Below the pieces are notes generated by a model, which was not told where the DNA came from, did no database searches, and was given only the letters and a program-made list of their open reading frames with translations. A DNA stretch of 62,659 bases from a virus, in IMG/VR virus record IMGVR_UViG_3300028048_000073, positions 1 to 62,659 of that record; one strand, given 5' to 3'. The first letter of the stretch is position 1. Each line of letters opens with the position of its first letter. A program made the translations under genes and the position numbers. Positions 2,705-34,000 of the stretch are shown here, piece by piece.

Positions 2705-2875
2705 TTATCCTAAGAAGTATGCCTTGAGTACCTTATAGCATAGGTCAGCATTTTCTTTTCCTGTTTCTGAATCGTCTTCTGCAAATCCATTCATTGCTGC
2801 TTTGATTAATTCCTCAACAGAAATAAAAGATAACAACATCTGCAATGCTACTACATTATTGATGTTATTATACAT
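2705..2875 (-). CDS. 56-aa hypothetical protein (early gene, absent from the ORF track)
   Basis: ATG preceded by AAAGGAGA RBS; a perfect TTGACA-17-TATAAT promoter lies about 40 nt upstream; translation MYNNINNVVALQMLLSFISVEELIKAAMNGFAEDDSETGKENADLCYKVLKAYFLG. Confidence 0.45.
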   Translation of the reverse strand: MYNNINNVVALQMLLSFISVEELIKAAMNGFAEDDSETGKENADLCYKVLKAYFLG

Positions 2876-2910
2876 AATGATTGTTTCTCCTTTCTTTTGT
2901 TGTTATATAT

Positions 2911-2939
2911 ATTATAACATATATTTTATATGTTGTCAA
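2911..2939 (-). promoter_or_regulatory. sigma-70-type promoter, minus strand: TTGACA-17nt-TATAAT
   Basis: RC reads TTGACAacatataaaatatatgtTATAAT. Confidence 0.55.
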
Positions 2940-3585
2940 TGTGTTGTATCTATTGTGTTGTTGTGTGTGTTGTATATATGTATGTGTTGTGTGCGTTATT
3001 GTATGTGTGTTGTTGTATATATGTTTATGTTGTTGTATCTGTTGTTGTTGTGTTTATTATGTTATTATGTTATTGTTGTGTTAATGTTGTTGTGCTCTTT
3101 GTTGTGTGTGTTGTTACTGTTATGTACGTGTGTGTATGTCTATGTAGCTGTGTGTATATGCGTATATATGTATGTATATATGTTATAACAATAGTGTTGT
3201 TATGTATATGTATGTATATTAGTATGTGTGTATGTATTGTAGTGTATATTATTATGTTATTATGTGTATGTATTATTGTGTATGTTATGTTGTTGTATTG
3301 TATGTGTTTATGTATATTATTGTATGTGTTGTTATGTTGTATGTGTTTGTACATAAGTACATTGTGTTGTTATATGTCTGTGTAGATATGTATTGTTGTA
3401 TATCTATGTTGTTGTTGTATTATTTTATATTGTATTATTGTGTATATTGTTGTGTATGTTATTGTGTTATGTTTATTATATTGCTGTGTATGTTATGTGT
3501 TAGTGTTGTTGTGCTTGTCTCTTTATGTGTTGGTGTAGTTATAGTGTTATGTTGTTGTGTGCGTGGATAAGTGTGCGTGAGTAGC
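2925..3585. repeat. about 660-bp low-complexity GT-rich, C-depleted tract of degenerate TGT/TAT/GTT triplets with short (TG)n runs
   Basis: The plus strand is almost only G, T and A over 650 nt. There is no regular repeat unit and no credible ORF. Confidence 0.8.
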
Positions 3586-4252
3586 TGCTATGTGGCATCA
3601 TCTAAGCAAGTACTGCCGCATTTTATTCACCGTATTTTTATACCTCTTATTATCTCTTTCTATTGGTCTTAGCAATAGAACAATACAATATAATCTTATG
3701 TATTTATGCGCGCGTTCGGTTTGTATATCCTCGCACAAGTTTGGTTCATTACGAAACGGCTGCCCGCGCCTCAATATATACTCCATTATTTTCTCACTAT
3801 TGTTCTTCCACAAATGTTGTAATAAATATCCTTCATTAATAATATCATTCAAAATTTTTAAATAGTTTTATCAATACTCTTTAAATGTTTTTATACCTTT
3901 AAATAATTTATTAAGATAATTGTTTATAAAGCAAAATTTATTTAATTGTTTTTATTTATTTATGGCAGCGGCAAATATAAAAAGAAAATAAAACATAATG
4001 CGCTTGCTTTTGTGGCAGGTGTATTAAATAAACGGCTTACTTTTGTGGGAGGGTCCTAGGTGAACGGAGCCAAGAAAAAAAGTCTTCAGCTTCGTGACGT
4101 ACCGGGGGTATATTTTGGGATAATAAATTTGATTTTCTAAAAAATTTAATTTACCACGCACTTTCCGACAGCAAAAGTTTTTTCGTTTTAAAAAAGCGAA
4201 GCATATTTTCTAAACACCAATAACGAAAAATTTTTAAATCAATTAAATATTC

Positions 4253-4281
4253 TTGACATTGCGAAAAATTTTTGATATAAT
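4253..4281 (+). promoter_or_regulatory. sigma-70-type promoter with extended -10: TTGACA-17nt-tgaTATAAT
   Basis: Perfect hexamers; 27 of 30 positions are identical to the promoter at 21113. Confidence 0.6.
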
Positions 4282-4307: not shown

Positions 4308-5384
4308 TTGGACAATTCAAAACAACACATTCCCCTTGATTACTCAATCACAGACCCAAAAGAAAGAAAGAAACTTGTTGATAAAATCCTTGCAGAGAAT
4401 CCAAATCCCTCCAAGCAATATTTAGAAATTTTATCAGATTACATCGTTTTAGCAATGACCAAAGAAGAAAAAAAAGAAAAGAAAATCCTTACAGATAATC
4501 GCATGGTAACTGTCAACAAGCGCGAAACCTCTTATCAAGGGCTTGTATCTAAACTTGAAAATGGCGAAGATGGCTTATACCATATGATGGGCGGCAATGA
4601 TAAAAACATCATTTTAACCCCCAAAATAAGTATTACTAAAAAAGACCTTGATGAAATACCTGCACTTCAACAAATGCGCAAAGATATCGAATATTGGAAA
4701 GAAAAAGAAAAAACTGCGGTGGGCAAAGACCGTTATATCATTAAAAAAACAATCATTGAACTTTCACAAGACCAATATATCGTCAAAAGTGCTTTTCGTA
4801 ATCCCATTATAACTCAAAACACCGTAAAAACAGAACACAAAATTGATTTTGGTGAAAACTATTATATCGACGCGGAAGGCAATATTCAAAGTGATGGTCT
4901 TGTCACCCTTCTCAATCCTCAGCACGTCTCTGCCATTCTCTGCAATTATAATTTATTCAGATGCGGCGACTCAGGTAAAGACCTCACAGACCTAGTAGAT
5001 GAGCTTGACAAACTTATTGATCAAACACTTAAAGACGACTATCCTTTCTATTATGACCTTGTTTGGCTTAAAATAGATGGAATAAAAAATGCGGATATCC
5101 ACAAACAACTTAATGACAAACACGGCTACACCTACTCCGTCGAATATCTTTCAGCTTTGTGGCGCAAAAAAATCCCCAAACTTCTATCAGAGCAAGCGCA
5201 AGAAAATGCGCTTATCTGGTATTACACCGAAGTAGAACGCGGCAAGTGGAAACGTTGCTCTCGATGTGGCGAAGTCAAATTAGCGCACAGCCGTTTTTTC
5301 TCTCGAAATAAAACTGCATCCGATGGCTGGTATAGTGTATGCAAGTGCTGCCGCAACAAGAAAAAAGGAGCTGGGCAGAAATGA
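4308..5384 (+). CDS. hypothetical protein with C-terminal Cys4 zinc-ribbon; possible small terminase or DNA-binding packaging protein
   Basis: 358-aa ORF with TTG start after GGAAAGGAGGG RBS; CSRCG...CKCC motif at the C-terminus; first gene of the rightward block before terL. Confidence 0.5.
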   Translation: MDNSKQHIPLDYSITDPKERKKLVDKILAENPNPSKQYLEILSDYIVLAMTKEEKKEKKILTDNRMVTVNKRETSYQGLVSKLENGEDGLYHMMGGNDKNIILTPKISITKKDLDEIPALQQMRKDIEYWKEKEKTAVGKDRYIIKKTIIELSQDQYIVKSAFRNPIITQNTVKTEHKIDFGENYYIDAEGNIQSDGLVTLLNPQHVSAILCNYNLFRCGDSGKDLTDLVDELDKLIDQTLKDDYPFYYDLVWLKIDGIKNADIHKQLNDKHGYTYSVEYLSALWRKKIPKLLSEQAQENALIWYYTEVERGKWKRCSRCGEVKLAHSRFFSRNKTASDGWYSVCKCCRNKKKGAGQK

Positions 5385-5431: not shown

Positions 5432-6691
5432 ATGCCGTTTTGTCAAAAATGTCAAAAGACACTTAAAGATGTGGCTTTTTATACATATAAAGATGGAACA
5501 AAAACAGAATTATGTAAGAAATGTTTAACAATGCACGTAGACCCCTATAAACCTGAAACTTTCCTTTGGATACTTGAAAAAATGGATATTCCGTGGCTTC
5601 CTTGGGAATGGAATCCTCTTGTGGCGAGGGCAGCCGCTAAAGGAAGCCAGTATGTTAGTGGTACCGCCATTATGGGCAAATACCTTGGAAAGATGCGGCT
5701 AGGTCAATGGGGAAAATTAGGTTGGGCGGATACAGAAAAAGAACAGGCGAAAAGAGACGCCTTAAGAGCTGAATACACTATTGTTCATGGCGAAGCACCA
5801 AAAGATAAGGAAACTCTTCATCAGCAATATATTGATGGAGAAATAACAGAAGCTCAATATAAGACTATGCTGCCAGAAGAATTAGTCGTGCCGCCACCAC
5901 CTGAAGCACCCCCAGAGCCAGTAGACCCTTATAAAGAAAACGATTTTCTGGATGAAGTGGAAAGTCCTGCGGCTCAACTATCTCAAGAAGATAAAATTTA
6001 TTTAGCCATGAAGTGGGGCAGAAATTATCATGCTGAACAGTGGATAAAGCTTGACCGTATGTATGAAGAGATGTCTAATTCTTTTGATATATCAGATGCG
6101 GATTCTAAGATAAATTTGCGGCAGCTCTGTAAGACATGGCTGAAAGCTGAAGAAGCTATTGATATGGGTGATATTGATAGTTATCAAAAGCTCAATAGAG
6201 TTGCGGAAAGCCAACGTAAAAGTGGTAATTTTACTGCCGCACAAAATAAAAAAGAAAAAGATGACTTAGTAGATTGTGTTGGAAATCTTGTTGCCTATTG
6301 CGAGCGGGAAGGCGGAAAGATTCCTCGTTTCGATATATCTGCGCCAAGAGATCTCGTTGATAAAGAAATTCAAGACCAAAAAGATTATATTCATGCGCTC
6401 ATATATGAAGATAAGGCATTGGCACAGCAGATAGAAACTTATCTAAAGAAACGTGAACTATTGGATGAAAAAGTGCGGAAGAAGCTGCTCGAGCGCGCGG
6501 GAATCAAAGAAGACGACGAACTTAACGATGATGACTTTATGGATAGATTCAATGAAATTTCTCGTGAAGTTGAGCATGACTTAGCCGTTCAATCTGGTTC
6601 TATTGATAATGAAGACAATGATGAAAAATCAGTAGAGGGAGATGATGAATATGGCTTTGTCGGATTTGACAGCCCTCTACGACAAGTATGA
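5432..6691 (+). CDS. hypothetical protein with N-terminal zinc-ribbon (CQKC...CKKC) and acidic coiled-coil C-terminus; small terminase candidate
   Basis: 419-aa ORF, AGGAGATG RBS, 3-prime end overlaps the terL start. Confidence 0.5.
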   Translation: MPFCQKCQKTLKDVAFYTYKDGTKTELCKKCLTMHVDPYKPETFLWILEKMDIPWLPWEWNPLVARAAAKGSQYVSGTAIMGKYLGKMRLGQWGKLGWADTEKEQAKRDALRAEYTIVHGEAPKDKETLHQQYIDGEITEAQYKTMLPEELVVPPPPEAPPEPVDPYKENDFLDEVESPAAQLSQEDKIYLAMKWGRNYHAEQWIKLDRMYEEMSNSFDISDADSKINLRQLCKTWLKAEEAIDMGDIDSYQKLNRVAESQRKSGNFTAAQNKKEKDDLVDCVGNLVAYCEREGGKIPRFDISAPRDLVDKEIQDQKDYIHALIYEDKALAQQIETYLKKRELLDEKVRKKLLERAGIKEDDELNDDDFMDRFNEISREVEHDLAVQSGSIDNEDNDEKSVEGDDEYGFVGFDSPLRQV

Positions 6692-6987
6692 GTCCAAAAT
6701 AGGAATGTCGGAAGAACGCTTAAAAGAGCAACTTCCAAATTTAAGAAAATTAATTAGTTTTTTTAGAGAATATCCAGATTTATTTGTAGACTTCATGAAA
6801 GGCGAGAAGAGCACTTTTAAGTTCTATTATTATCAAAGAGTATTTATAAGAATGGTGGCGCGGCATCGATACGTTTATGCGACGTATCCGAGGGCCTTCA
6901 GCAAAAGCTTCTTGTCGGTATTAGTGCTAATGTTGAGGGCAGTTCTTTTTCCTGGTTCTCATTTGTTTGTAACTACGGGCGGTAAAT
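6642..6987 (+). CDS. terL: large terminase subunit, exon 1 (T4 gp17-like ATPase N-terminus including Walker-A-like PRAFSKS)
   Basis: FYYYQRVFIRM...YPRAFSKSF...FPGSHLFVTTGGK matches gp17 RDYQRDMLKIM...SRQLGKT...KAVGILAHKGS in order and spacing. Confidence 0.7.
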
Positions 6988-7921
6988 AATATAAAAAAGA
7001 AGGAGGAGCACATAGTGAGTGCAAAAAACGTCCTTAGATATTTTGATAAAATTAATACAGAAGAGAAAGCCTATTGGTTGGGTTTTTTATATGCAGATGG
7101 TTCTATTTCTTCCAAAGAAGATAAAATTGAATTAGGTTTAGCAGAGAAAGATTTACATCATATTGAAAAATTTAAACAAAGTTTACAATTACCAAATAAA
7201 ATATGTTATAGGGCTTCAACAAAATCTTATAGAATTAGCTTTAGAAGTCAATCATGTAAGCAAGATCTCATTAATAAAGGTTGTGTTCCTAAAAAATCTT
7301 TAATTCTAAAATTTCCAACAGAAAAACAAGTTCCTTTTTATCTTTTAAAACATTTTATTAGAGGATATTTTGATGGAGATGGATGGTTCACAAATACGTC
7401 TGATTGTTTTCAAGTTGGCATCATTGGAACACAGGACTTTATTCAAGGGTTTTTAAATGCAGTAGAAAACATTAATAAAACAAATAAAATTTTTAGTGTT
7501 CATAGAGAAAACGGTGCAAAAAGATACATATTTGGAGCTTATAATGATGTCTTAAATTTTTTAAATTGGATTTATAAAGATTCAACAATTTATTTAGATA
7601 GAAAATATGAATCTTATTTAGATTTTATTCAAAATGGAAGTAAATATCATAAATAATAATTTTTATATGCCGCCATATTAAAGTAATTTAATATAAGAAA
7701 ACTGCGGAATTAAGCGGGGAAGCTGAGATGCTAATCCGAACCGAAGGCCAATAAATAAAAGGATTGGTCAGGGGCAACGCATAGGGGGTGACGAAAGAAT
7801 AATCTCTCCACGAGGCCGCAGCTCCTTTGAAAGGATGAAAAGATATGCTAGACTTATACGAAAGCAAGTATAAGATTTTATGGATAAAAAGCCATAAAGA
7901 TAATATAATCGAAAGAACAAG
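6988..7921 (+). mobile_element. putative group I intron (about 934 nt) interrupting terL, carrying a LAGLIDADG homing-endonuclease ORF
   Basis: The two terL halves are in-frame homologues of contiguous gp17 sequence. The intervening sequence has stops, its own RBS, and a 3-prime 260 nt with P/Q/R/S-like core elements (attaagcggggaagc, taatccgaacc, ggtcaggggcaa, aagaataatctctcc). The modelled exon 1 ends in T and the modelled intron ends in G. Confidence 0.6.
7015..7656 (+). CDS. LAGLIDADG-family homing endonuclease (two motifs: LGFLYADGSI and IRGYFDGDGWF)
   Basis: 213-aa ORF inside the terL interruption, GTG start after GAAGGAGG RBS. Confidence 0.8.
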   Translation: MSAKNVLRYFDKINTEEKAYWLGFLYADGSISSKEDKIELGLAEKDLHHIEKFKQSLQLPNKICYRASTKSYRISFRSQSCKQDLINKGCVPKKSLILKFPTEKQVPFYLLKHFIRGYFDGDGWFTNTSDCFQVGIIGTQDFIQGFLNAVENINKTNKIFSVHRENGAKRYIFGAYNDVLNFLNWIYKDSTIYLDRKYESYLDFIQNGSKYHK

Positions 7922-9306
7922 CCTCAAGCATTACACTATCTAAAGTCGAAGAGCTCTGTAAGCTATTACCATTCTTACAGAATGAAATCAATTGGGAGCG
8001 TGGGGAAACAAGAAAAACAAAAGATGATGTATGTTACAAATTTAAAAATGGTTCAATTATAGATATTCTTGCAGCAAAAGAAAGTTCAAGAGGGCAAAGA
8101 AGACACTCTGGATTGATGGAGGAGTGCGTTCTTATAGATCAAACTGCTTTGAATGAAATAATTATCCCAACGACGAATGTGAACAGGAACCTTCCGGACG
8201 GATCAACTGACCCTAAGGAGATTGTGAACAAGAGCCAAGTGTATATCACCACAGCAGGCTGGAAAGCCTCGTTCGCGTACACAAAACTTATTGAACTATT
8301 GATTCAATCAATTATTGAACCAGATGAAGTCATGATTGCGGGAGGTACCTATGAAACGCCTGTACTCGAAGGGTTATTAGATGAAAACTTCGTTAATCAG
8401 TTACAGCTACAAGATACTTACAATGAGGATTCCTTTGACCGAGAGTACAGGTCTCGTTGGAGTGGAGATGTGGCGAACGCATTCTTCTCTGCGGAAAAAT
8501 TTGATAGATATAGAGTGCTGAAACAGGCTGAATACGAACATAGCGGCCGCTCCTCAAAAACAGCTTATTATGTATTTGGCGTGGATGTTGGACGCTTTGA
8601 TTGTACTACTGAGGTACTTGTTTTTAAAGTTACGCCTCAACCGCAGGGTCCAGCAATCAAATCGCTTGTTAATATTTATACCCTAAATGCAGAGCACTTT
8701 GAAGACCAAGCAATTAAATTGAAAAAACTATTCTTCAAATATCATGCCAAATGTATTGCTATTGACGCAAATGGCGTTGGTGCAGGTTTAGTTGACTATC
8801 TCGTAAAAGCTCAAACCGACCCAGATACTAATGAATATTTACCGCCTTTTGGCGTTGAGAATGATGATGATGGAAAATATAAGAATTTTAGAACTCCAGA
8901 TATGGAAGAAGATGCATTGTTCTTAATCAAAGCAAATGCGCCAATGAATACAGAAATGTATGCTTATGCAAAAGTACAAATGATTAATGGTAAGATTAAA
9001 CTATTAATTGATGAGTCTCAAGCAAAAGCAACACTTATGTCTACAAAGGCAGGACAAGCGATGAGTATCGCGCAACGCAATGATTATTTAAGACCTTATG
9101 TTTTAACAACTGTTTTAAGAGAACAATTGCTTAATCTCTCGCAAGAAAATGAAGGATTAAATATTATTCTTAAACAAGTATCTAAGACAATCAAAAAAGA
9201 TAAATTCTCTGCTTTTATATATGGACTTTACTATATTAAAAAGTATGAAGATTCGAAACATAAACGAAAGAAAGTTAGACTTTCTGATTATATGTTCTAT
9301 ACATAA
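7922..9306 (+). CDS. terL: large terminase subunit, exon 2 (Walker B / coupling motif / nuclease domain)
   Basis: SSSITLSKVEELCKLLPFLQ...NGSIIDILAAKESSRGQRRHSGLMEECVL aligns with gp17 [21 protein letters not shown]...[30 protein letters not shown]. The frame is open from 7909. Confidence 0.75.
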
Positions 9307-21840: not shown

Positions 21841-24800
21841 ATGGCTAACAGTGGTCGTTTTGAATATACGATTGGTTTTAAAACTGATGATAAAGGTTTA
21901 AGAGACGCTCGTAAAGCATTACAAGAAATTCAAAATTTGACAATTAATTCACCCGGTATGTCAGATAAAAGTGGATTTTTGGAAAATGCTAAAAAAAGTG
22001 CTGCAGAATTAGAATTAGCTTTAACAAAAGCATATAACGTAAAAATGGGCACTACAAGCGTAGCTAAATTAAATACAGAATTAAATAATTTAAAAACACC
22101 TTTGAATAAAATATATGAAGATATGGTTGCAATAGGACCGAAAGGTGAGGCAGCTTTTAATAAGATTGCTGCGCAAGCAATGAAAACGAATCTTCAAATT
22201 AAGCAAGGTAATATAATTTTAAATAAATTTGGAAAAACTTTATGGAGAAATGTTGAATGGTTAATTTCTGGTAATTTAATTAATACAGTTACTGGAGTTT
22301 TTACAAAAGCATACGGATTTACTAAAAATTTAGATAGCTCATTGAATGATATTCGTATTGTAACTGGAAAAAGCGCAGATGAAATGGCGCGTTTTGGTAA
22401 AGAAGCACAAGAAACTGCCGCAAAATTAGGCAAAGGGACTACAGATATCACCAATGCTTCTTTAATTTTCTATCAGCAAGGACTTGACAGAGAAGAGGTT
22501 GATGCGCGCACAGAAGTTACTGCAAAAATGGCGAATGTAACAAAACAATCTGCTGATGTTGTTGCGGATCAAATGACAGCTATTTGGAATGGTTTTAGAG
22601 CAGGTAGTGATGAATTGGAGCACTATGCGGATGTAATGACTGCTATTGCTGCAAGTACAGCGTCCAGCTCACAAGAATTGGCTGGATCAATCTCTAAGGT
22701 GGCATCTATTGCCAATACAACTGGTGTTGACATGGAGCAACTATCCGCTATGATATCAACTGTCATTTCTGTAACTAGAGACAGCCCAGAAACAGTTGGT
22801 ACAGCATTTAAAACTATTTTTGCCCGTATCAATGATTTAGTTGAAGATGGCACAGATGAGTTTGGTGTTTCTCTTGGTAGAATATCTTCTCATTTGGCTA
22901 ATATGGGCATTGAAATTCTTAATGAAGATGGAACATTAAGAAACTTAGGAAATACATTAACAGAAACGGGAGAAAAATGGAAATCTTATAGTAGAGAACA
23001 ACAAATCGCCATTGCTGAACAAATGGGTGGTAAACGTCAATGGAACCAAGTGCTTGCCCTGTTCGATAACTGGGATAAATATAAAAACGCTCTTGATGTA
23101 GCAAGAGATTCAACGGGAGCACTACAAAAACAACAAGATATTTATATGGATTCCACAGAAGCACATTTACAAGCGGTAAAGACTGCTTGGGAAGGCGTCT
23201 ATGGAGAAATGATGACTGCTGACAATATTAATACTGTTGCGGATTTCTTTACGGATTTATTAGAAAAAGTTCAAAGTTTTATTCAAGCCGTTGGAGGAAT
23301 GAAGCCTTTATTAACTAGCGTTGCAGGAATTTTAATGACTTCTTTTTCTTCTCAAATTGGTCAAAGTATTGGCAATATAGCTTTGAATTTTCAGAGAATG
23401 TCATATAATGCAAGAGAACTTTCTGCACAAAATCAATTAATTGCGCAATTTGGTAAGTTGGAAAGTCCTTTAATGAAAGAGTTGGCAGATAATCATCAAA
23501 AAATCTTACAATATCAGTCAAGTATGACGGAGCAACAAAGACAACAATATGAAAGTTTATTGGATATTAGAGTTGAAGCAGAAAATGAATATAAAGCTAT
23601 AAAAGAACAAGACGACGCTTTAAAAGGTCTCTTAACGAAATATGAACAAATTGGAGAAATACAAAAGCAAAACAATTCTTTATCAGAAACAACAGACGCT
23701 ATCCAGCAACGTGCGGGCGCCCTTGAAACAATGCGTGAGAATGAAGGGTTTGAAACAAAAAGTGGGCGTTTAGTTTCTTTAGATTGGACAGATAATGATC
23801 ATAAACAGACAATAGATAGTTTGAAAATTGTTAATGCCATAGAACAAGAAATAGTTAAAAGACAAGAACAAGCAATTAAATTAAAAGAACAAATGGTAGA
23901 ACAAACAGGAAAACAAAAGGAAGCTACTCGAAAACAAGCTAAAGAAGAAGAAACTATTGTAAAATATTTAAGAGAAGCTGCTGATATAGCTCGAGAAAAT
24001 GCTCATAGAAGAGCAACGGAAAAAGGAAATCCAAGCCTGCCAAGCAAGGCTGCAAAGACCATTGAAGAAGTACAACAAAAAATTACAAATAAATATCAGG
24101 GAAATCATGATGATGTTGTAGATTTAGTTAAAAATTTAAATGATGTGTTAGGTAAAACAAGTAAACCTGCTGAATCTGCTAAACAAAAAATTGATTTAAT
24201 TAAAGCAAGTTTAGAAAAACTTGGCAAACAAGGGGCTTTAACGGAGAAAGATGTTCAAAACTTAAAAGATAAGTATGATGCATTTGGACAAACAATATCT
24301 AAGGTAACATCTAAAGAAACTTTAATAGAAGGATTTGGAAAATTAAAACAAGAAGTTTTAGCTACGGGAGCAGTTTCTGAAGAAGAATTTACAAAAATGA
24401 TTCAAATGCTTCAAGATGGCGTTCCACAAGCGGCAGATACTGCAAAAGCACATCTTGAAGCTGCAAAAAAAGCAACTAAAGAATTTTTTGAACAATTGGA
24501 TTTTCAAAATAAAATAAAGAACATTACTACAGCAATCGGCGCAGTTGGTCAATTAGCGGGGGCAATTCAATCACTTAAAAATTTAGGTTCTATTTGGGAT
24601 AATAAAGATTTAACAACTGGAGAGAAACTATTACAAACTGTTCAAAATTTAGGTTTTGTAATTCCTATGCTAACTACTTCAGTAATGAATTTAACTAAAT
24701 CTTTATTTGCAAATGCCGGAGCTTTAACAGTAGAAATGCTAGCTGAAAAAGGAGTTGTGCTACAAAAAGGTGCTCATTTAACTGTTACACAATTATTAAC

Positions 24801-27800
24801 CATAGCACAAGTTGCATTAAATGCCGCTTTAAAAGCTAATCCAATCGGTCTCGTTATAACTGCAATTGCCGCACTAGTTTTGGCTATGAAAGGACTTTTG
24901 TCAATTCTTAATAAGGCAACTAAAATTACGGGCGGATGGAGGGCAGCTACTGTTGCCCTAGGCACAGGTATTGGGGCTCTATTTTTAGGTCCTATTGGGG
25001 CTGCTATTGGGTTGACTGCAGGATTAATAGCTAATTTCTGGCAATTAAAAGATGCTGAAGAAGCCGAAAGAAAAGCTATGATTGAATCATCAAAAGCTAA
25101 AATTGAAGCTAATAAAGAACTTCTGGAAACAGCAAAAGCTCAGCAAGAAGCTATACAGTCTTTTAAAGATGCTTATGATGCTTATGAAAAAGATAGGAAT
25201 AAATTAAGCGATTTAACCACAGCAGTTGAGGCATATAGACAAACACTGTCTAGTTCTGAACAAAAACAACTCGACCACTTAAAACATATTGCAGATATTA
25301 CTGGAAATTATGATCTTTTAAGAGATGCTATTCTTGGTGTTGAAGCGGCGGTGCAAGGAACAGAAAATAAAATTTCAGAAGAAAATAAATCTAATTATGA
25401 AAAACTTGTTGCTGCTGAAATAGAAGAAGGTAGTGGGGCAGAAAATTTTAAAGAAGTAAAAGGTAAAGATAGTATTTCTGATTTTACTGGAAAATCAGAT
25501 TCTTCTTCAATTACAGTAAAATATACTTATAATGGCTTAGGAAACAATTCAGGAGAAAAACGAGAATTTGGTACAGAAGAAGAAGCAACGGAATGGTATA
25601 GGAGCTTGAGTACGGATGAACAGGCACAATGGAGTGCTGGTAGCCCTGTTTCCGTAACTGGTAAAGGTTTTGTTGTATCTGGTTCTAGTTCACAAAATTT
25701 TTCCAATATAGGAAAAGCATATAATACTCATTTTAATCAACTTGGTCAGGCTATGGCTCAACAATTGGTTCAAAGTGGGTTAATAACAGAAAAAGATCAA
25801 AAAGAAGTTGCTAATTTTTTAACTTCGGAATTTAAAAAAGGCAATTTTAGTATGGATACTTTGCAACAGGCAATTCAATCCAAATGGGGCATCGATCCAG
25901 AAAAAATGAAAAAAGGATTTGCTAATGTTGTTGCAGAAACAATGCAAGATTGGGATGATATTCTTTTAAATAGTGAAAATTTGGATGTCAATAGCTCTTT
26001 TTATCAAATTGCTCGCGGTGCGATAAATTTTTATACAACTGAAAATACACAAGGCTTAGCTGACACCAATCAATTTTTAGATAAGAATAAAATAGAAAAA
26101 GCAGTATCAGAAACAACTAAAAAATACGAAAATGATTTTAAAAAAGCTGTAAAAATGTCTAAAGAGCAAATTCAATTAAAAACAGAAGAAATATATAAAG
26201 ATTTGCTTTCACAGGGATTAGATTCTGAAGATGCTAGAGATCAAGCTGAACAAATTGTCCAAGGGTTTTTTAGTGATATTGAAGGTGGTATGACTGAGGC
26301 CGCAAAGAATGGCATTTTAAGTTTTAATAATGGCGAAATTGTAAAAACATTAGTCAATGGAGTGAATTTAAAATCATTAAAAACAAATTTTGAAGAAGAA
26401 TTAAAGAGGCATCCAATAAAAGTTGATGGAAAAGATTTTTACATTGATGTCGAAAACTTATCTTGGGAAGGTATCCAACAAGATATTAATAACGGTTCAT
26501 TAAAAAAAGAAGATATTTTTAATGCAGAAGGTCAATTAAATGTTGATACAAAATCTTTACAAATTTTAGCATCTTATTCTCAAGAATATCAAAATTTAGG
26601 AAACAATGTTGCAACTACAACAACTAATTTTGAGCAATTAAATGGTACTATTGATAGTTTGAATGAAAAGATTGAAAAGAAAAATATTAAAAATCTTGAT
26701 AAGGATTCTGATTGGAAAGCATTACAAGAGTCTGAAAGTGATTTAAGAATTTTATTTAAAGATAATGAAGAAATGCTTGAAAAAATGGATATTCTTTTTG
26801 ATCCATCTAAATATGGCACAGATGAGTGGTATGAAGCTTTTCATCGAGTAGCTGATGGAATTAGGTCATCTGGAACAATAGAAGCTTTTAATGAAATGAG
26901 TAAGGTTGAAAATGATTTTCTTAATGAGCATAGAACAATCCAAGAAGAAATAGGCGGAAAGACAGATTTTCAAGTTAAAATGGAAGTTGATGGTGATGAA
27001 TATGAAGATTATATGGAAAAAATCACCGATGCTGATTATAAAGTCAATGTTCAAGTTCAAGTAGAAAATTCTAGAGAATTAAAAGATTTAAAAAATGAAC
27101 TTAATTCCACTATTGGGTTAGCTGGAAAAATTGGCGAGGGATTTATTGTTTCTCGAGATGATTTGTTCGAATTAGCAGAGGCATATCCTGCACTTTTAAA
27201 GAATGCCCAGCATATGACAGACGGGACTATTAAATTAAATGAGGCTTCTGTAAAAGATTTTATAGATGCTAAGAAAAAAGAATTTCAAGCAGAAGTTGAA
27301 GCAAAAAGGCAGAAAATATTAGCACAAATTGAAATTTTAAAGCATAAAAAAGAAACTTATGATAAAATGGCTGATATTGGCGCGAGAATGGCTTCAGGGG
27401 CAATTGATACGGAAGAAGACCTTGTTGAGGTTACTGGACAATTAGATGCACATAATGAGGATTTAAAAATTGCTAATCATTATCTTACAAATCAAGAAGA
27501 TAGTAAATTAATGGAAGCTAATGTAGATGATTTTAATAAATCAGGTAAAAAAATTGTAGACAGTAATAGATCGTTTTGGCAACAAGTTGTTGATGACAGG
27601 GCTGCAATTTTAAGTGGACAAGCAATAACGGATTCATATAATCCAGATGATTTTAAATGGTCATCGGATAGCTGGGATGATTTAATAGGCTTTATTAATA
27701 GAAAAGACCTTGGAAATGGACACTATCTTGCAGATTATTGGGGAGCTATTGATGAAATAAAAAACCGAGGTCAAGATATATATGATAAATTTCATAAGTT

Positions 27801-30800
27801 AAGTGAAGAAACTCAAGGGCTTATAGACGATGAGTATGCTTCATTAGATAGCTTAAATTTATATGAAAAAGCTGGATTAGATGCTTTTAATAATATTGGA
27901 AAAGTAACTGATGCGACCAAGGATAACACAAAAGCAGAAAAAGATGCAGCAGAAGCACAACAAGAATTGCTCGATTTGTTAAATGAAGAAATAGATGCAT
28001 ATCATGATGTTACGCAACAAATTGAGCGCCATACGACAGCATTAAATCGTCTTCAAAAAGCTCAAGAAAAAGCCACCGGAAAAACATTAATTAAAAATCT
28101 TCAAGATCAGATGAAGGCATATCAAGATCTAAATAATGACTATGCAGACAAGCAGTTCTTACAATATGAAGAGGCTGCTGCTTATAGAGTCCAACTTGAA
28201 GAGCAGGGTGTTGCTTTTGATGAAAACGGTGTCATTAGCAATTATAGTGATATTCTTAATCAAAAACAAAAAGAAATTAATGCTGATCTAGCATGGTATA
28301 ATTCTCTAAGTGCAGAGGATCAAGAGGCACAAAAAGATTGGATTGAATCTCGACAAGCAGAGTATGATAGCTTAGTAGATCTTATTGGCAATTATGACCA
28401 GCTATGGAATCAAGATATTCCTGATTTGGCAGATGAAATAGCTGAGAATATTGATAAACAAGTTGAGCTTGAATTAGAGATTAAAAAACAAATTGTTCAA
28501 ATTGAGGTAGATAAGGGTTCCTTAAAACGAATGGAGATGGAACTTAATAAAACACTCGATAATGTACAAGAGAAAGATTTAGAGAGAAATCTTGCCTATA
28601 ATATCCAATCTTATTTTACCTATAGTGATGAAGAAAAGGCAAAATTAAAAAGATATTTAGAGGCAAAGCAGAAAAAAGATGAAGCAGATACAAGTGGAGA
28701 AGACCTATCAGCAGCAGATTTGGAGAACTATAGGGAAGCATTAGAAGATTATAATTCAATAATGCAAGAAAAGGCTAAGCAAGCGAATGAGATAATTTCA
28801 AGTGCTTTTGATGGCTTAAATGAAAAAATTGAAAGACAAAAAACTCAATTTGAAACTATGTCTAAATTATTTGAACATGATATGAACCTTATAAAATTAA
28901 GATATGGTGATCAAGCTTTTGAACAATTGAAGACTCTTTACGCGGCAAGAGAAGAAAACGCAAAAGCACAGCTTAGTAATGCGAATTTGGCTTTAGAAGT
29001 CGCTCAAAAAGAACTAGCAGCTGCGCAAGCAAAAGGAGATTTAGATTTAGTGCAGGCGGCGCAGGATAAAGTAACATCAGCATTGGAAGCACAGAGACAA
29101 GCCGTCATTGATGGTATTAATGCAATTCAAGATACTGCAATGAATACTGTCGATGCTATCTTTGCGCATTTAGATGAACAAGTTGCTGGAGTTTCTTTTG
29201 AAAAAATGAAAAAACAATGGGATGACATGGAAAAGGATTCTGCTGATTATTATGATGCTATTAATGGAGCGTATGAGATAGAGAAATTACGTACTAATAT
29301 GAAAAAAGCAATTAATGAATCTGGAAGTGCGGCTACACAAAAGGCATTAAATAATTTAATGAATGAAGAAATTACAAAATTACAACAAAAAGATAAATTA
29401 TCAAAATATGATATTGAGAGAGCTAATGCTTTATTTGATATAGAACAAAAACGTGCTGCTTTTAGAGAAGCGCAAAACAATAAATCTAAAATGCGTTTAC
29501 GTAGAGATGCATCTGGTAACTATTCTTATCAGTTTGTTTCTGATGAAGATAAAGTAACTTCTGCAATACAAGATTTGGCAGATGCTCAAAATCAATTATA
29601 TAATATAGACAAGGAAGCATATAAAAATAATCTTGAAAAAATGCAAGAATACTACTTGGAATACCAAGAAGAAATGAAGGCGGCGGCGAACGCTAGCGCA
29701 GAAGAACGACAAGCAATCGAAGACAGATATATGGAACGTGTTGCTGAACTTCAAGAAGAAAATAGAGATGCAAGTAGGAACCTAATTCAAGATGTTGTAA
29801 ATGATAGCGAAATATTAACTGGAAAGAGTATTGAAAATATAGAAGATATGACTCAAGCCGAAGTAGATGCGCTTATGGGGAGTGCTATTCCTGCATGGAA
29901 GTCTTATCTTGGTGTTATGAGTCGATCAAAAGACTTATTGGCCGATATGAAACAAGCTGGACTGGATGCCTCTCAGGTTTTTGACACTTCAAAAGCAAAA
30001 ATTGATATTGAAATGGCTCTTAATGGACTATCATGGGATAGCTTAATAGAAGGCTTTGATCCAGCTGTAGAAAACATAAAAACAATGACATCCTCAACAA
30101 ATGAGATTGCGCAAGAGGTAAAGAATATTTCTGCAGGGGTTAGTCAATTTATAGAAGCTATTAAGTCTAACAATTTCACAGAGGGGCTAGAAAAATTTGT
30201 GATGGCTTTAGAAAATGGAACATTAATTACGCCTGCAATTAATATTTTACCTCAAAGAAATGCCTATATTTCTTCTGATAATATGGATACTATTGTTGAT
30301 TCTGCCGCTAGTCCAATGGATAGAATAATTACATCATATACACAACTTAAAGGGGAAGAGGCAAGAGCTCGTCGAGATCAACTTATTGATAATGGAGTGA
30401 TTTTTGATGCTGATGGAATTATTAATAACTATGCTGAAATTATAAAGCAAAAACAATTGGGGCTTAGCGCCGATTCAGCATGGAGCAGTTCCTTAAGTGG
30501 AGAAGATCAAGAGATACAGAAAGATTGGATTGAATCTCGTCAAGCAGAATATGATAATCTCATAGATTTAATTAGCGGTTATGACCAGTTATGGAATCGA
30601 GATATTCCTGCTTTAACAAATGAAATAACAAAAATCGCAGAAGAAAAAACGAGTAATGATTTACAAGAACGAGTTAGCGATTTAATAGATAATTCCATGT
30701 TTGTTTCTGAAACAGTTCAATTTTTAGCAGATAGGTTATCTAAGGTATATTCTCAGCAGTCTGAAATACTAAGCGAGACGATGGATTATTTACATACTTT

Positions 30801-30963
30801 GAGTACTGCTAAAGAAAAAGAAAGAGAACTTCAAGAATATCAACCAACTGTTGTTAATATTAACGCTGATTTCCCCGCAGTAACATCTCAACATGAAATT
30901 GAACAAGCTCTTGATTCTCTTGTTGCAAGAGCTACGCAGAGAGCTTATCGTACGGTTAGGTAA
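21841..30963 (+). CDS. tail tape measure protein (3040 aa)
   Basis: Giant alpha-helical, coiled-coil-rich ORF with a hydrophobic Gly/Ala-rich central TM-like block (aa about 1000-1070); position after the chaperone; internal duplication. Confidence 0.75.
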   Translation: MANSGRFEYTIGFKTDDKGLRDARKALQEIQNLTINSPGMSDKSGFLENAKKSAAELELALTKAYNVKMGTTSVAKLNTELNNLKTPLNKIYEDMVAIGPKGEAAFNKIAAQAMKTNLQIKQGNIILNKFGKTLWRNVEWLISGNLINTVTGVFTKAYGFTKNLDSSLNDIRIVTGKSADEMARFGKEAQETAAKLGKGTTDITNASLIFYQQGLDREEVDARTEVTAKMANVTKQSADVVADQMTAIWNGFRAGSDELEHYADVMTAIAASTASSSQELAGSISKVASIANTTGVDMEQLSAMISTVISVTRDSPETVGTAFKTIFARINDLVEDGTDEFGVSLGRISSHLANMGIEILNEDGTLRNLGNTLTETGEKWKSYSREQQIAIAEQMGGKRQWNQVLALFDNWDKYKNALDVARDSTGALQKQQDIYMDSTEAHLQAVKTAWEGVYGEMMTADNINTVADFFTDLLEKVQSFIQAVGGMKPLLTSVAGILMTSFSSQIGQSIGNIALNFQRMSYNARELSAQNQLIAQFGKLESPLMKELADNHQKILQYQSSMTEQQRQQYESLLDIRVEAENEYKAIKEQDDALKGLLTKYEQIGEIQKQNNSLSETTDAIQQRAGALETMRENEGFETKSGRLVSLDWTDNDHKQTIDSLKIVNAIEQEIVKRQEQAIKLKEQMVEQTGKQKEATRKQAKEEETIVKYLREAADIARENAHRRATEKGNPSLPSKAAKTIEEVQQKITNKYQGNHDDVVDLVKNLNDVLGKTSKPAESAKQKIDLIKASLEKLGKQGALTEKDVQNLKDKYDAFGQTISKVTSKETLIEGFGKLKQEVLATGAVSEEEFTKMIQMLQDGVPQAADTAKAHLEAAKKATKEFFEQLDFQNKIKNITTAIGAVGQLAGAIQSLKNLGSIWDNKDLTTGEKLLQTVQNLGFVIPMLTTSVMNLTKSLFANAGALTVEMLAEKGVVLQKGAHLTVTQLLTIAQVALNAALKANPIGLVITAIAALVLAMKGLLSILNKATKITGGWRAATVALGTGIGALFLGPIGAAIGLTAGLIANFWQLKDAEEAERKAMIESSKAKIEANKELLETAKAQQEAIQSFKDAYDAYEKDRNKLSDLTTAVEAYRQTLSSSEQKQLDHLKHIADITGNYDLLRDAILGVEAAVQGTENKISEENKSNYEKLVAAEIEEGSGAENFKEVKGKDSISDFTGKSDSSSITVKYTYNGLGNNSGEKREFGTEEEATEWYRSLSTDEQAQWSAGSPVSVTGKGFVVSGSSSQNFSNIGKAYNTHFNQLGQAMAQQLVQSGLITEKDQKEVANFLTSEFKKGNFSMDTLQQAIQSKWGIDPEKMKKGFANVVAETMQDWDDILLNSENLDVNSSFYQIARGAINFYTTENTQGLADTNQFLDKNKIEKAVSETTKKYENDFKKAVKMSKEQIQLKTEEIYKDLLSQGLDSEDARDQAEQIVQGFFSDIEGGMTEAAKNGILSFNNGEIVKTLVNGVNLKSLKTNFEEELKRHPIKVDGKDFYIDVENLSWEGIQQDINNGSLKKEDIFNAEGQLNVDTKSLQILASYSQEYQNLGNNVATTTTNFEQLNGTIDSLNEKIEKKNIKNLDKDSDWKALQESESDLRILFKDNEEMLEKMDILFDPSKYGTDEWYEAFHRVADGIRSSGTIEAFNEMSKVENDFLNEHRTIQEEIGGKTDFQVKMEVDGDEYEDYMEKITDADYKVNVQVQVENSRELKDLKNELNSTIGLAGKIGEGFIVSRDDLFELAEAYPALLKNAQHMTDGTIKLNEASVKDFIDAKKKEFQAEVEAKRQKILAQIEILKHKKETYDKMADIGARMASGAIDTEEDLVEVTGQLDAHNEDLKIANHYLTNQEDSKLMEANVDDFNKSGKKIVDSNRSFWQQVVDDRAAILSGQAITDSYNPDDFKWSSDSWDDLIGFINRKDLGNGHYLADYWGAIDEIKNRGQDIYDKFHKLSEETQGLIDDEYASLDSLNLYEKAGLDAFNNIGKVTDATKDNTKAEKDAAEAQQELLDLLNEEIDAYHDVTQQIERHTTALNRLQKAQEKATGKTLIKNLQDQMKAYQDLNNDYADKQFLQYEEAAAYRVQLEEQGVAFDENGVISNYSDILNQKQKEINADLAWYNSLSAEDQEAQKDWIESRQAEYDSLVDLIGNYDQLWNQDIPDLADEIAENIDKQVELELEIKKQIVQIEVDKGSLKRMEMELNKTLDNVQEKDLERNLAYNIQSYFTYSDEEKAKLKRYLEAKQKKDEADTSGEDLSAADLENYREALEDYNSIMQEKAKQANEIISSAFDGLNEKIERQKTQFETMSKLFEHDMNLIKLRYGDQAFEQLKTLYAAREENAKAQLSNANLALEVAQKELAAAQAKGDLDLVQAAQDKVTSALEAQRQAVIDGINAIQDTAMNTVDAIFAHLDEQVAGVSFEKMKKQWDDMEKDSADYYDAINGAYEIEKLRTNMKKAINESGSAATQKALNNLMNEEITKLQQKDKLSKYDIERANALFDIEQKRAAFREAQNNKSKMRLRRDASGNYSYQFVSDEDKVTSAIQDLADAQNQLYNIDKEAYKNNLEKMQEYYLEYQEEMKAAANASAEERQAIEDRYMERVAELQEENRDASRNLIQDVVNDSEILTGKSIENIEDMTQAEVDALMGSAIPAWKSYLGVMSRSKDLLADMKQAGLDASQVFDTSKAKIDIEMALNGLSWDSLIEGFDPAVENIKTMTSSTNEIAQEVKNISAGVSQFIEAIKSNNFTEGLEKFVMALENGTLITPAINILPQRNAYISSDNMDTIVDSAASPMDRIITSYTQLKGEEARARRDQLIDNGVIFDADGIINNYAEIIKQKQLGLSADSAWSSSLSGEDQEIQKDWIESRQAEYDNLIDLISGYDQLWNRDIPALTNEITKIAEEKTSNDLQERVSDLIDNSMFVSETVQFLADRLSKVYSQQSEILSETMDYLHTLSTAKEKERELQEYQPTVVNINADFPAVTSQHEIEQALDSLVARATQRAYRTVR

Positions 30964-31048: not shown

Positions 31049-34000
31049 ATGGCTTTTATTGAGAATGTCTTAGAAGCAGCAGAGATCACTGCGAATGCAA
31101 AACAGCAGGCCTTTGATAGAACTATTCAAGCAATAGTAAAAGATAACTCAGATCCAGATCATGAGGGCTTGATAAAAATATCTTATAAGGACGCTATTCT
31201 ATCTGTTTATACAGAGGCTAAAAATGTTAAGGAATACAAGCCGGGCGCGCATGTTTATGTTACAATTCCTAATAATGATATAAATGGGCGAAAAACGATT
31301 TTAGGATTGGTAGAAAAGATTGGTCCGTTAGCAATTATAAATGACAATGATGAATGGTCTATTGAAAATCGTTATCAGGCGGCGGAAGACGTGCAGTTTA
31401 TGGATGATGATTTTACTATTGGAACAAAATTCTTTAAATATGAATACGTAATAAACTCAGGAAATAATGAATTATCTTTTAAAAGATACGATAGTAGTCA
31501 TCCGGGCGGCGTAATAGAAAATAATGCAAAAATTCAAGAGTTTTTAAAGTACCTTAAAGATGCGGCGGTTCAAGGAAATTATCTTCGTTTAAAGGGTATA
31601 TTTACAACTTTTTTAATGTCAGAGCAACGAAATTTTTCCTCATCTAATTATGGTATTAAGATTAGTTTTAAGGTTGGTGGGGAATATTTTTCTACAACTT
31701 TAGATATTGATCAAATGACAGGCAATCCCTATTTCCAAAAAGAGCAGCAGCAATCTATAATTATTGATACGACGAAAGTGGACGCGAAACGACTTCAGTC
31801 TATAACAATTGAATATGAAAGGTATGGCTTCCCGCCATCACAGCAAAATTTGGAAGAAAATAATGTAGTGAATGCTATTAATCCTTTTATTTCCATTTCT
31901 AATTTTATTGTTGAAATAGTTTCTAGTATGTCTCAGGAAGAAACAGCTGATTTAACGTTGTATATCAATCCACTTAATGGAAAAACTTTTTTGGCACAAG
32001 GAAATGGTACTAGTATAACGGCATTAAAGTTAAATGCAGTTATAAAAGAGAATAAGGTACAATTAGACAATTCATCTTTGAAATGCTGGTGGTATGAAAG
32101 GGATAGCTCTTGGATTGACGCAAAGACTAATCTTTCAAGTACAGATGATAGTGATAATATTATATATGATTATTATAGTCAATTGAAAGCAGTTGCGATT
32201 CTTGATAGAGGCGGACCTGGCTGGCGGCCAGTCCATAGAGATACGTTAACAGCGGAAAAAGTTTCTAATGTAATTGGAAAAGATGTAACAAAAGAGTTTA
32301 GTAAATTAAAAAATAGTTATCCTAGCCAAGTGTATGATTACAATATTAATGATATTAATCCTTTTATCGTATATCGTGAAGATTTGGGACTAGCTATAAA
32401 TAAAGAATATAAAGTTGTTGGTATCTATAATGGAGTTGAATTATCTGCTACAATTATAATTAATGATCGTGATAAAGAGAATCCATATTCTTTAACGCTT
32501 GAAGAAAAAACATTATCTGGAGAAACATACACACAATATCGTTTAAAAACAACAGCAGATAGGCACGCGAATATTTCACTTAAATGGTTTTATCTTCAAG
32601 ATGGTGAAGCTTCAGAATTATTAATAGATACGAAAAGAATAGACGAAGAGAATAAAAAAATAGAAGGATGTTGTTCTTCTGACTATTGGACAATCGGATT
32701 GAAGCATAAAATTTTTCCTTATAGTGGTGAAGTTATTTGTGAAATTTATGAAAGCAATGAATTAGTAACAACATTAAGGGAAAATTATAATGCGCCATTA
32801 GGTGAACAAGTTTTATTTTATAATTTTGAACAAGTTTTTTTATACGATTCTAATGGAAAAATAAAAATAGTTGGGGATAATGCAGATGAAGAAGAGGAAG
32901 AAGATAAATATAGTATTACTGTTCGCCCATTGAGTTTATCTGGAGTAGTCTCTAATGTTAATTGGTATATCCCTGACAATCATTTTTTTGACACTTCACA
33001 ATTAGAAGCAACAGCAGAAAACACAAGTACAATAGATTTTATTGAACAGGATGGCATTCGATATATTAAAATTCGAGATAGAACGTCATTATCTAATTTA
33101 AAGATTAAAAAGGATTTTTCTAAAGACGCCTTTTGTGAAAACATTACTGTTACTTATCACTTTAATTCAGCTGATTATTCTAAATCTACTAATTTTTCTT
33201 TTTTAATGGAAGGCGATGATGGCACCAATGGCAGTGGACTTGTGTGCCGAGTAGTACCAAATATAGACACAGATGGCTATTGCCCCAACACTGTTATTTT
33301 AGGCGTTCAAAATGTCAATGGAGACGGCGGCACTCGCAAAGATACTAAAGCCATGTTTAATTTTCTTCCAGCAAGAATTAGCGAAGCAGATATGAATAGG
33401 GGCATTAAAAAAATGATGGAATCACGAACACCTCATTATTTTAAAGCTCAACTTTGGAAACAAAATAAAAAGATTTTTGAAGGGACAATTCGTAAGGCAT
33501 CTGATAGGGATATAACGAAATTAAAATGGGAACTATTAAATGATAATATTATACAGTGTAATAACAGCAGCGACTCTATTATTGGATGTCAAAAAGCTTT
33601 TTCTGAAGCAGAATTATTAGAAGCTCTTCGGCTGCCGCAAGGAATAAAAGCTATAATAAAATATCAAGGGCAAGAAATTTCCTATACCTTACCCTTTTTA
33701 ACTTTTGGTTTTACGGGACAAGATCGGGGTGCTAATAGCCATGCCCTTACTTATGCTAATTTAAAAGAATATGGTATTATAAATAATAAAAATGGTTTTT
33801 CTTTAAATCAATTGGTTAAATTTTATTACAATGAAGATGGAGAAGTAAATGGTATTTCTGTTAATAATAGTAATAATGTTTTGAGCGGTAATCTGAAAAA
33901 AAGTTATGCTATGATTAAGCCAGACAGCAAAGATAAAACAGAATGTCAAGCCTTTTTACTTAAAGGTGATGAATATTGGTGGATCGCCAAAGGAACCTCT

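Follow-up and report, generated by a model that had tools for sequence, protein, structure and literature searches.

What is a stretch of some 650 bp, almost devoid of cytosine on one strand, doing in the control region of a large phage genome? The question is posed by IMG/VR virus record IMGVR_UViG_3300028048_000073, of which positions 1 to 62,659 were analysed (this whole stretch of DNA, which is part of a genome, is referred to here as the window). The tract at issue, a T/G/A simple sequence in which single purines stand between one or two Ts, lies at 2940-3585 and is assigned to neither strand. The initial annotation had described a 660-bp, GT-only, cytosine-depleted tract at 2925-3585, and had offered a Rho-utilization (rut) site for leftward early transcripts, a strand-biased spacer near a genome end and an unwinding element among its possible meanings. 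The cytosine depletion and low complexity have been borne out; "GT-only" has not (18% of the bases are A), and the left edge has to be moved to 2940 because 2911-2939 is a perfect minus-strand promoter. The answer that we favour, and hold tentatively, is that the tract is a fast-evolving, slippage-generated, signal-free spacer between the first leftward early promoter and a probable packaging (pac) block that precedes the rightward late operon.

On the plus strand the tract is T 54%, G 25%, A 18% and C 3.5% (356 T, 164 G, 118 A and 23 C over the slightly longer interval 2925-3585), with a bias that persists throughout: per 200 bp across 2901-3600, GC skew stays between +0.66 and +0.88 and AT skew between -0.40 and -0.54. 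The C-poorest 200 bp of the tract hold 2 Cs, against a minimum of 10 elsewhere in the 62.6-kb window, and the longest C-free run, 162 nt at 3190-3351, compares with 61 nt elsewhere and with a chance expectation of about 1.4e-7 per window. Of the 259 purine runs, 241 are of length 1, spaced by one T (164 cases) or two (81 cases), and AA, AG, GA and GG are held to 0.05-0.41 of their expected frequencies. Because purines are isolated in this way, 79% of dinucleotide steps alternate between purine and pyrimidine (46% in the whole window). All rows of the Tandem Repeats Finder output are imperfect, at 65-90% matches (67-80% in most of them) and 0-20% indels, and their periods are many; in Fourier analysis only periods 2 and 2.5 exceed a first-order Markov expectation; neither method identifies a dominant repeat unit. 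The tract is, in short, built of 1-3-nt motifs with a T-R/T-T-R grammar (R, purine) and no long repeat unit. G/C-containing palindromes are also scarce in it (5 4-mers and 1 6-mer, against 12.9 and 3.6 expected). Pure C-to-T deamination was considered as the origin of the bias and is insufficient: G is itself enriched (25% against 18.5%) and the isolation of the purines is left unexplained.

Two divergent promoters, each a 12/12 match to the sigma-70-type consensus, bound a gap of 1.3 kb, and the tract makes up the left half of that gap. The leftward one (minus strand, 2939->2911) reads TTGACA-17-TATAAT with a TG-extended -10, and its -35 box abuts the tract. It is found at the identical position in L044, a 138.8-kb contig whose portal protein is 72% identical in amino acid sequence, and direct reading finds related promoters at the same site in L017, L018 and L021-26. 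The rightward promoter (plus strand, 4253-4281), also with an extended -10 and also kept in L044, serves the packaging/structural operon, and all genes from 4308 to ~50580 are rightward. Placement of the tract between divergent units is accordingly correct, but the accompanying proposal that early genes are transcribed leftward across it finds no support in the same anatomy: the sole strong leftward promoter stands at the left edge and fires away from the tract. In a scan for sigma-70-type sequences (phage-polymerase promoters being possible), no minus-strand site matching at 9 or more of 12 positions was found between 3586 and 4252. The minus-strand open reading frame (ORF) at 3598-3852 was considered as a gene, and hence as a source of leftward transcripts, and rejected: it is frameshifted in L009, has mostly non-synonymous changes and is replaced in L015. 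The notion of a promoter island was likewise dropped, weak minus-strand -35/-10 look-alikes in the tract numbering 17 against 15.7 +/- 4.9 in shuffled sequences, which is what composition predicts.

All 11 assemblies, from different samples, that contain the identical gene for the 56-amino-acid protein encoded just downstream of the leftward promoter also carry the tract, at lengths of 529-773 bp. (Within the collection, 96 index blocks list the protein in identical form, and 23 contigs were read from these; an IMG/VR search with the gene gave no match.) In this near-identical set the share of variable columns is 18.7% in the tract, 6.5% in the left flank and 10.5% in the right, and that of columns with gaps is 29%, 5% and 16%, respectively. 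The base changes comprise 78 A/G, 36 C/T and 15 transversions. Indels between close relatives are of 1, 2, 4, 5, 6, 8, 16, 20, 30 and 52 bp, most of them not divisible by three, and the units gained or lost resemble the motifs of the tract itself: TG, TA, TGTGT, TTATTA and TGTTGTTA. Motif-sized length polymorphism of this kind, in DNA more variable than its flanks, fits replication slippage.

At greater distance, L044 retains, along with the two perfect promoters, the same element downstream of the tract (see below) and a tract of ~590 bp (T 55, G 21, A 20, C 4%), of which only the first 160-300 bp align with the window above chance (77% and 65% identity); the remainder is at 56-59%. The two tracts are 68% identical overall; random sequences with that composition give 62.5 +/- 1.4%, and neighbouring non-coding DNA 52-57%. 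Composition and length have therefore outlived sequence, since both are kept while the distal two-thirds have fallen to random-level identity.

Farther afield still, the position that the tract occupies, immediately upstream of the leftward promoter's -35 box, is filled in other ways. L017 has a 750-bp tract of alternating TA/TG/CA without strand bias (plus strand C 9, G 12), 75% of its steps alternating, with a 36-bp perfect run; L021-26 have a ~370-bp (TTA)n/(TA)n tract of strain-variable copy number (C/G 6/6); L034 has AT-rich low-complexity DNA with GT patches; and L016 has arrays of palindromic GTTACAAnnTTGTAAC boxes, ~30 tandem copies of which lie between its 56-amino-acid gene and its late operon (8270-8800). 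No unusual tract is found at the same site in L018, L019, L029 or Enterococcus phage EF1. The search of relatives for similar tracts, which the initial annotation had proposed as a check, thus has a divided outcome: 11 near-identical assemblies and L044 have one, and other lineages have different low-complexity DNA or none. The sequence is lost at larger divergence and the site stays permissive; what recurs among lineages is the place rather than the sequence. More generally, the control region is repeat-prone across the family. Related contigs break or have gaps at simple repeats near it, namely (ATTTGAAT)17, (GTCT)n and a run of Ns (L017 1-135, L029 1-30, L019 5650-5800), and L016 has a separate 700-bp AT-only tract containing (AATAAT)n at 6119-6819. 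EF1 has a short stretch, ATACATTATGTATGTATATATGCAT (L028 3150-3185), some 40 bp upstream of the -35 box in its counterpart of the leftward promoter. This stretch is similar to the TATGTATGTATATATG words found in the tract, and might be either a seed motif or a coincidence.

Two quite different possibilities, that the tract encodes very hydrophobic Cys/Val/Tyr-rich proteins or that it is an artefact of assembly, are scarcely credible and can for practical purposes be excluded. The tract does have plus-strand ORFs of 114-151 amino acids, and gene callers have called ORFs of 85-196 amino acids inside it in some contigs. These are long because stop codons are depleted (14 against 42.5 +/- 4.1 expected), about three-fold in all three frames, which is a likely by-product of the rarity of AA, AG and GA. 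There are no Shine-Dalgarno words on either strand, and the indels that separate near-identical relatives, being mostly not multiples of three, do not keep the frames, which excludes coding; the earlier statement that the tract is non-coding and lacks ribosome-binding sites is upheld. As for artefact, the tract recurs in eleven assemblies that differ in sample and in assembler.

The other boundary of the proposed spacer has to be sought on the right. Between the tract and 4103 lies non-coding DNA of normal composition (3586-4103), including an AT-rich segment at ~3800-3960. It is followed, on the plus strand at 4104-4165, by a bipartite element, GGGGGTATATTTTGGGA, ~35 nt and then TTACCACGCACTTTCC, that is shared with Bacillus SPbeta-like phages. 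Conservation is high here: 3841-4131 is 94-100% conserved in 7 of 9 relatives compared, with one block each at 91-92% in L012 and L015. The element is single-copy in the window and occurs once per locus in many lineages. In an alignment of the window with seven gut/rumen lineages and three Bacillus phages it takes the form GGGGGTATATTT(T/A), ~35-40 nt, CCA(C/T)(G/A)GCAC..TCC; in Bacillus phages SPbeta, phi3T and BUCT082 it reads GGGGGTATATTTACA...GTACCCATAGCACTTCC and lies inside the yonR-yonP gap, and in the SPbetaL2 locus the same element is at L035 4203-4262. It is common to both groups even though the proteins of the window family and of the Bacillus phages are only ~28-30% identical. The yonR-yonP interval of SPbeta has been identified, by restriction mapping and read pile-ups, as the interval in which the genome opens and headful packaging starts, and a sharply bounded block of ~250 bp follows that opening point (10.1101/2021.11.22.469490). 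The database records of two further phages start at the two edges of this block, exactly 250 bp apart and in opposite orientations: in the coordinates of the SPbetaL2 locus, BUCT082 starts at 4007 (plus strand) and BUCT083 at 4257 (minus strand), the latter at the junction GTACCCATAGC/ACTTCC. Judged from these records, such a pattern would be expected of a short direct terminal repeat rather than of a simple pac cut.

Homology thus points to 4104-4165 as the probable pac/terminase site, or genome-opening block, of the phage in the window. The right edge of the block would by the same alignment fall near the junction of 4158 and 4159, and the block probably takes in the AT-rich segment that holds 3820-3919. 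It is the neighbourhood, not the tract itself, that shares a non-coding element with phages whose opening point has been mapped. Contig ends, as a proxy for physical ends, are inconsistent and give no common signal. The suggestion of a strand-biased spacer near a genome terminus or packaging site, made originally as one of several other readings, gains support from the shared element in the opening-point interval, to the extent that this predicted pac assignment is correct. The suggestion of an unwinding element suits the AT-rich neighbour better than the tract, 3820-3919 being the least stable 100-bp duplex of the whole window.

The same comparison brings to light a feature of the Bacillus phages for which a limited literature search found no description (this is not proof of novelty). 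In phi3T, Goe11, SPbetaL5, BUCT082 and BUCT083 a C-depleted stretch of 215-335 bp extends from upstream of the leftward yonT-like gene to the opening point, with C 3-5.6%, G 25-28%, T 36-39% and A 31-33% (the tracts in the loci examined are at L040 1151-1485, L041 1261-1505, L042 1291-1505, the last 320 nt of L038 and L043 1441-1506). Cytosine is altogether absent from the final 50-100 nt ahead of the opening point, even in SPBc2, in which the skew is confined to ~66 bp. Like the tract in the window, this interval lies between a leftward first gene and a pac block with GGGGGTATATTT...CCA..GCAC, and is C-poor and G-enriched on the same strand. Unlike it, it is purine-rich (runs such as GATGAG and GTGAGT; GG/GA) rather than purine/pyrimidine-alternating, and it reaches the opening point. 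In the tract of the window T predominates and purines stand singly, and the predicted block is not reached: 320-570 bp of DNA of normal composition lie in between, and the tract abuts the promoter instead.

What explanation best accommodates all this? On the slippage-generated spacer that we favour, the tract would fill a non-transcribed gap between the early promoter and the pac/genome-opening block and would work by its inertness, putting ~1 kb between the early promoter and the pac block (and probably the DNA end as well) while also parting two divergent promoters of consensus strength. Its one-sided composition would have been inherited from the expansion of T-R and T-T-R units and kept up because small duplications and deletions renew the sequence faster than point mutation can randomize it. 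The location of the tract, its hypervariability, the retention of composition and length despite randomized sequence, and its scarcity of signals (no Shine-Dalgarno words, few leftward start codons, few G/C palindromes, no stable structure in leftward RNA) are matters of observation; the pac assignment, the mechanism of slippage and the benefit of a spacer or insulator we infer. Cryptically simple sequences and degenerate microsatellites are known to evolve by replication slippage, and the tract resembles them in its low complexity, its unit-sized indels in close relatives, its fast turnover and the lineage-specific motifs at a permissive site. It differs from the general run of them in being unusually long for a phage, in lacking a dominant unit and in a strand asymmetry that persists at saturating divergence: it would be a simple-sequence spacer, unusual in its persistent strand bias.

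There is also a case to be made against this explanation. Phage genomes are compact, and 650 bp of functionless filler would not be expected to persist across a clade. In the window and in L044, where neighbouring non-coding DNA is saturated with change, G still makes up 51-58% of the purines of the tract and C 6% of its pyrimidines. Strand-symmetric neutral mutation in a genome of 34% GC would erode such a bias, so that its survival calls either for slippage turnover at a very high rate or for selection acting on strand composition. The C-depleted, G-enriched tracts in the analogous interval of Bacillus phages, at ~28-30% protein identity, hint by analogy at a strand-specific function. Lastly, since several family members have no tract, any spacing requirement is not strict.

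One function that might take the place of mere spacing is termination by Rho. Leftward RNA read into the tract would be nearly G-less, unstructured and untranslatable, and its synthesis might be terminated by Rho before it reached the early promoter and early genes; the source of such RNA might be a spurious promoter, a promoter for a phage polymerase or a leftward gene that has been inserted next to pac, as is seen in some relatives (phi3T and SPbetaL5 have leftward genes right of the pac block that are aimed at the tract). The predicted composition of that RNA, C/A-rich and G-poor, was correctly anticipated: it is A 54, C 25, U 18 and G 3.5%, includes a G-free run of 162 nt, and over its 646 nt has a minimum free energy of -17.9 kcal/mol and a centroid structure almost without pairs. 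Only 3 start codons and no Shine-Dalgarno words occur in it, and the leftward RNA of the Bacillus tracts would be comparable (C 25-28%, G 3-6%). In being C-rich and G-poor over at least ~80 nt, unstructured and untranslated, it does resemble classical rut sites, such as rutA/rutB of lambda tR1. A typical rut site is ~80 nt long, however, and the tract is about eight times that length. It lies upstream of the only credible promoter on the same strand, the 12/12 leftward promoter being at its downstream edge, and no transcription unit enters it, the genes beyond it being rightward. The excess of C over G in leftward RNA is missing from the syntenic tracts of L017, L021-26 and L046. Because no credible promoter reads into the tract, the role first proposed for it, as a rut site of early transcripts, fails on anatomy, and we consider its service as a Rho-loading insulator improbable. 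A rut-like composition, taken without regard to promoter anatomy, predicts Rho termination poorly. (No Rfam family matches anywhere in the window at the gathering threshold; miRNA-like matches below threshold fall mostly on the long hairpins at 2003-2431, with two in the tract, at 3130-3191, and weak ones at 1535-1628.) A role for the physical properties of the DNA is unlikely too, but deserves somewhat more attention. Flexible, purine/pyrimidine-alternating DNA of low stability might absorb or transmit negative supercoiling between the divergent promoters, by B-Z transition or melting, or might offer a wrappable, bendable surface to terminase or nucleoid proteins beside pac. Transcription that creates twin supercoiled domains can drive alternating purine-pyrimidine tracts upstream of active promoters into Z-DNA or melting, and the tract shares with such DNA its many TG, TA and GT steps, its place between two strong divergent promoters and an alternation that runs perfectly for up to 35 bp, where about 12 bp or more would count as Z-DNA-prone. 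Moreover, alternation is the only property that it has in common with the L017 tract, which differs in its bases and lacks strand bias, and its segment 3163-3262 is the fourth least stable 100-bp duplex of the window. Its alternation is nevertheless interrupted by TT every few bases, it is A/T-rich and TA steps disfavour Z-DNA. The Fourier scan finds no 10-11-bp periodicity that would suggest wrapping, helical phasing or curvature. The least stable segment of the region lies outside the tract, the AT-only tracts of L021-26 and L034 alternate weakly (59%), several lineages have no tract, and no HU/TF1-like gene is present in the window, which is part of the genome.

The remaining alternatives turn on proximity to a DNA end. 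If packaging proceeds rightward from the pac block, as the SPbeta opening point and packaging direction would imply (10.1101/2021.11.22.469490), the tract would belong to the last DNA packaged and the first ejected, with the end on one side of it and the inward-reading early promoter on the other. The strand rich in G/T and lacking C would be the one with the 3' end, and the tract might buffer against exonuclease, aid recombinase loading or circularization, keep restriction sites out of the first DNA to enter or take part in forming the end. The bipartite element shared with SPbeta-like phages, the record starts of BUCT082 and BUCT083 at the two block edges and the Bacillus tracts that end, free of C, at the opening point would be in keeping with such a leader, as would the depletion of G/C palindromes. 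Restriction-site avoidance so localized, however, would be useful only if DNA entered the cell stepwise. The interposed 320-570 bp of normal DNA, the inconsistent contig ends of this phage and the many family members without a skewed tract also count against it, and C-depletion is the only trait that it has in common with the purine-rich Bacillus tracts; on balance a leader of this kind in the window is distinctly improbable. Phage T7 may offer a parallel: its terminal repeat is flanked by arrays of short repeats upstream of the first early promoters. There too, non-coding DNA of low complexity separates early promoters that read inward from a genome end or packaging signal, but those arrays are short (~100-200 bp) and made of heptamer units. 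More ambitiously, a C-less, G-enriched leader reaching from the pac block to the first inward-reading early gene might be a functional module conserved from Bacillus to rumen and gut SPbeta-like phages, with a strand-specific job at the DNA end, the tract in the window being an expanded, microsatellite-like version of it. We think this, too, improbable. Its job, were it real, would be to protect or process the first-ejected end, to load recombinase or to help terminase finish or duplicate the end.

Whichever of these applies, the locus repays attention. If the tract is only a spacer, as we suppose, it is the landmark of a control hub in a large, uncultured SPbeta-like family, one that combines two divergent consensus promoters, a probable pac site in common with Bacillus SPbeta and a hot spot of simple-sequence turnover. 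For its part, the finding that C-depleted DNA also lies next to the opening point mapped in Bacillus phages suggests an undescribed strand-specific feature of genome ends.

As to the phage itself, several observations point to a distant relative of SPbeta. The window proteins have Pfam matches to YonG_N, YonD_N and YonB, and a DnaE-type polymerase and NrdD are also encoded. INPHARED nucleotide searches with the tract region and with 20 kb of late genes gave no match. Relatives are contigs of 134-159 kb, and distant cultured kin include Enterococcus phages EF1 and VRE9, Phass-1, Geobacillus E3 and the Bacillus SPbeta-like phages. Sample labels (STEW19, XIEF21, RUG) suggest rumen or gut sources. 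An attempt to name the host through the genome bins of related contigs yielded Methanobrevibacter, Bacilli, Bacteroidales and Treponema, an inconsistent set that was set aside as binning noise.

The gene that the leftward promoter serves first (2705-2875, minus strand), coding for the 56-amino-acid protein referred to above, has an AGGAGA ribosome-binding site and is conserved, with homologues of 55-68% identity in L017 and L016, and its product has no Pfam match. A GC-rich hairpin, GGGTCGC...GCGACCC, at 2522-2556, followed on the minus strand by TCATTTTG, was noticed by direct reading; it is below the threshold of the terminator scan and may be the terminator of this gene's transcript. A perfect 16-nt inverted repeat (2597-2612/2872-2887) copies the ribosome-binding site and ATG of the gene onto the opposite strand, where GT-rich sequence follows. 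The plus-strand copy opens a hydrophobic ORF of 22 amino acids (MLLCVLLLFVFSSLCLVCTSSS) at 2609-2677, convergent with the 56-amino-acid gene. The layout is reminiscent of type I toxin-antitoxin pairs; in the SPbeta-like phages of Bacillus the corresponding place is taken by a yonT-like toxin gene. Farther left, 1940-2520 is dense in repeats and lacks a credible ORF. Among the repeats are a perfect 35-nt inverted repeat (2143-2177/2199-2233), a 53-nt imperfect one (2257-2363), TTTTGTGCAAAATGCACAAAA boxes, GTTACAAAATTGTAAC palindromes and four GGCAGCGG(C) boxes, of which a fifth copy lies at 3958-3973. Iteron- or operator-like in character, the region might serve as an origin or as a regulatory array. 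Two copies of GTGTGCGTG (3557-3565 and 3571-3579) lie at the tract's right edge, and comparable GCGTGTG words are seen in the C-depleted tracts of the Bacillus phages. The GTGTGCGTG copies bear a loose resemblance to the Chi sequences of some Firmicutes, which contain GC and are rich in G and T.

On the other side of the gap, the first gene of the rightward operon (4308-5384, plus strand) encodes a 358-amino-acid protein that belongs to phrog_5767 (annotated "sigma factor"), has a C-terminal zinc-ribbon-like region and has 4,757 database homologues. It is followed by genes for a YonG-like protein, the large terminase, the portal protein and YonD-like and YonB-like proteins. The terminase is seemingly split into N-terminal and C-terminal ORFs with a free-standing LAGLIDADG endonuclease ORF between them (the three ORFs are at 6642-6989, 7015-7656 and 8113-9306). 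The C-terminal ORF matches the phrog_2 terminase, no group I intron was detected by Rfam at the gathering threshold, and relatives have HNH, GIY-YIG or no endonuclease in the same area. Two ORFs of the late operon are giant, at 21841-30963 (3,040 amino acids) and 31049-35551 (1,500 amino acids). Toward the far end of the window the DnaE-type polymerase (55889-59860) is followed by an HNH/homing-endonuclease-like ORF (59937-60968) and then by a Dda-like helicase fragment (60990-61979), an arrangement that suggests further insertions of mobile endonucleases in the replication genes.

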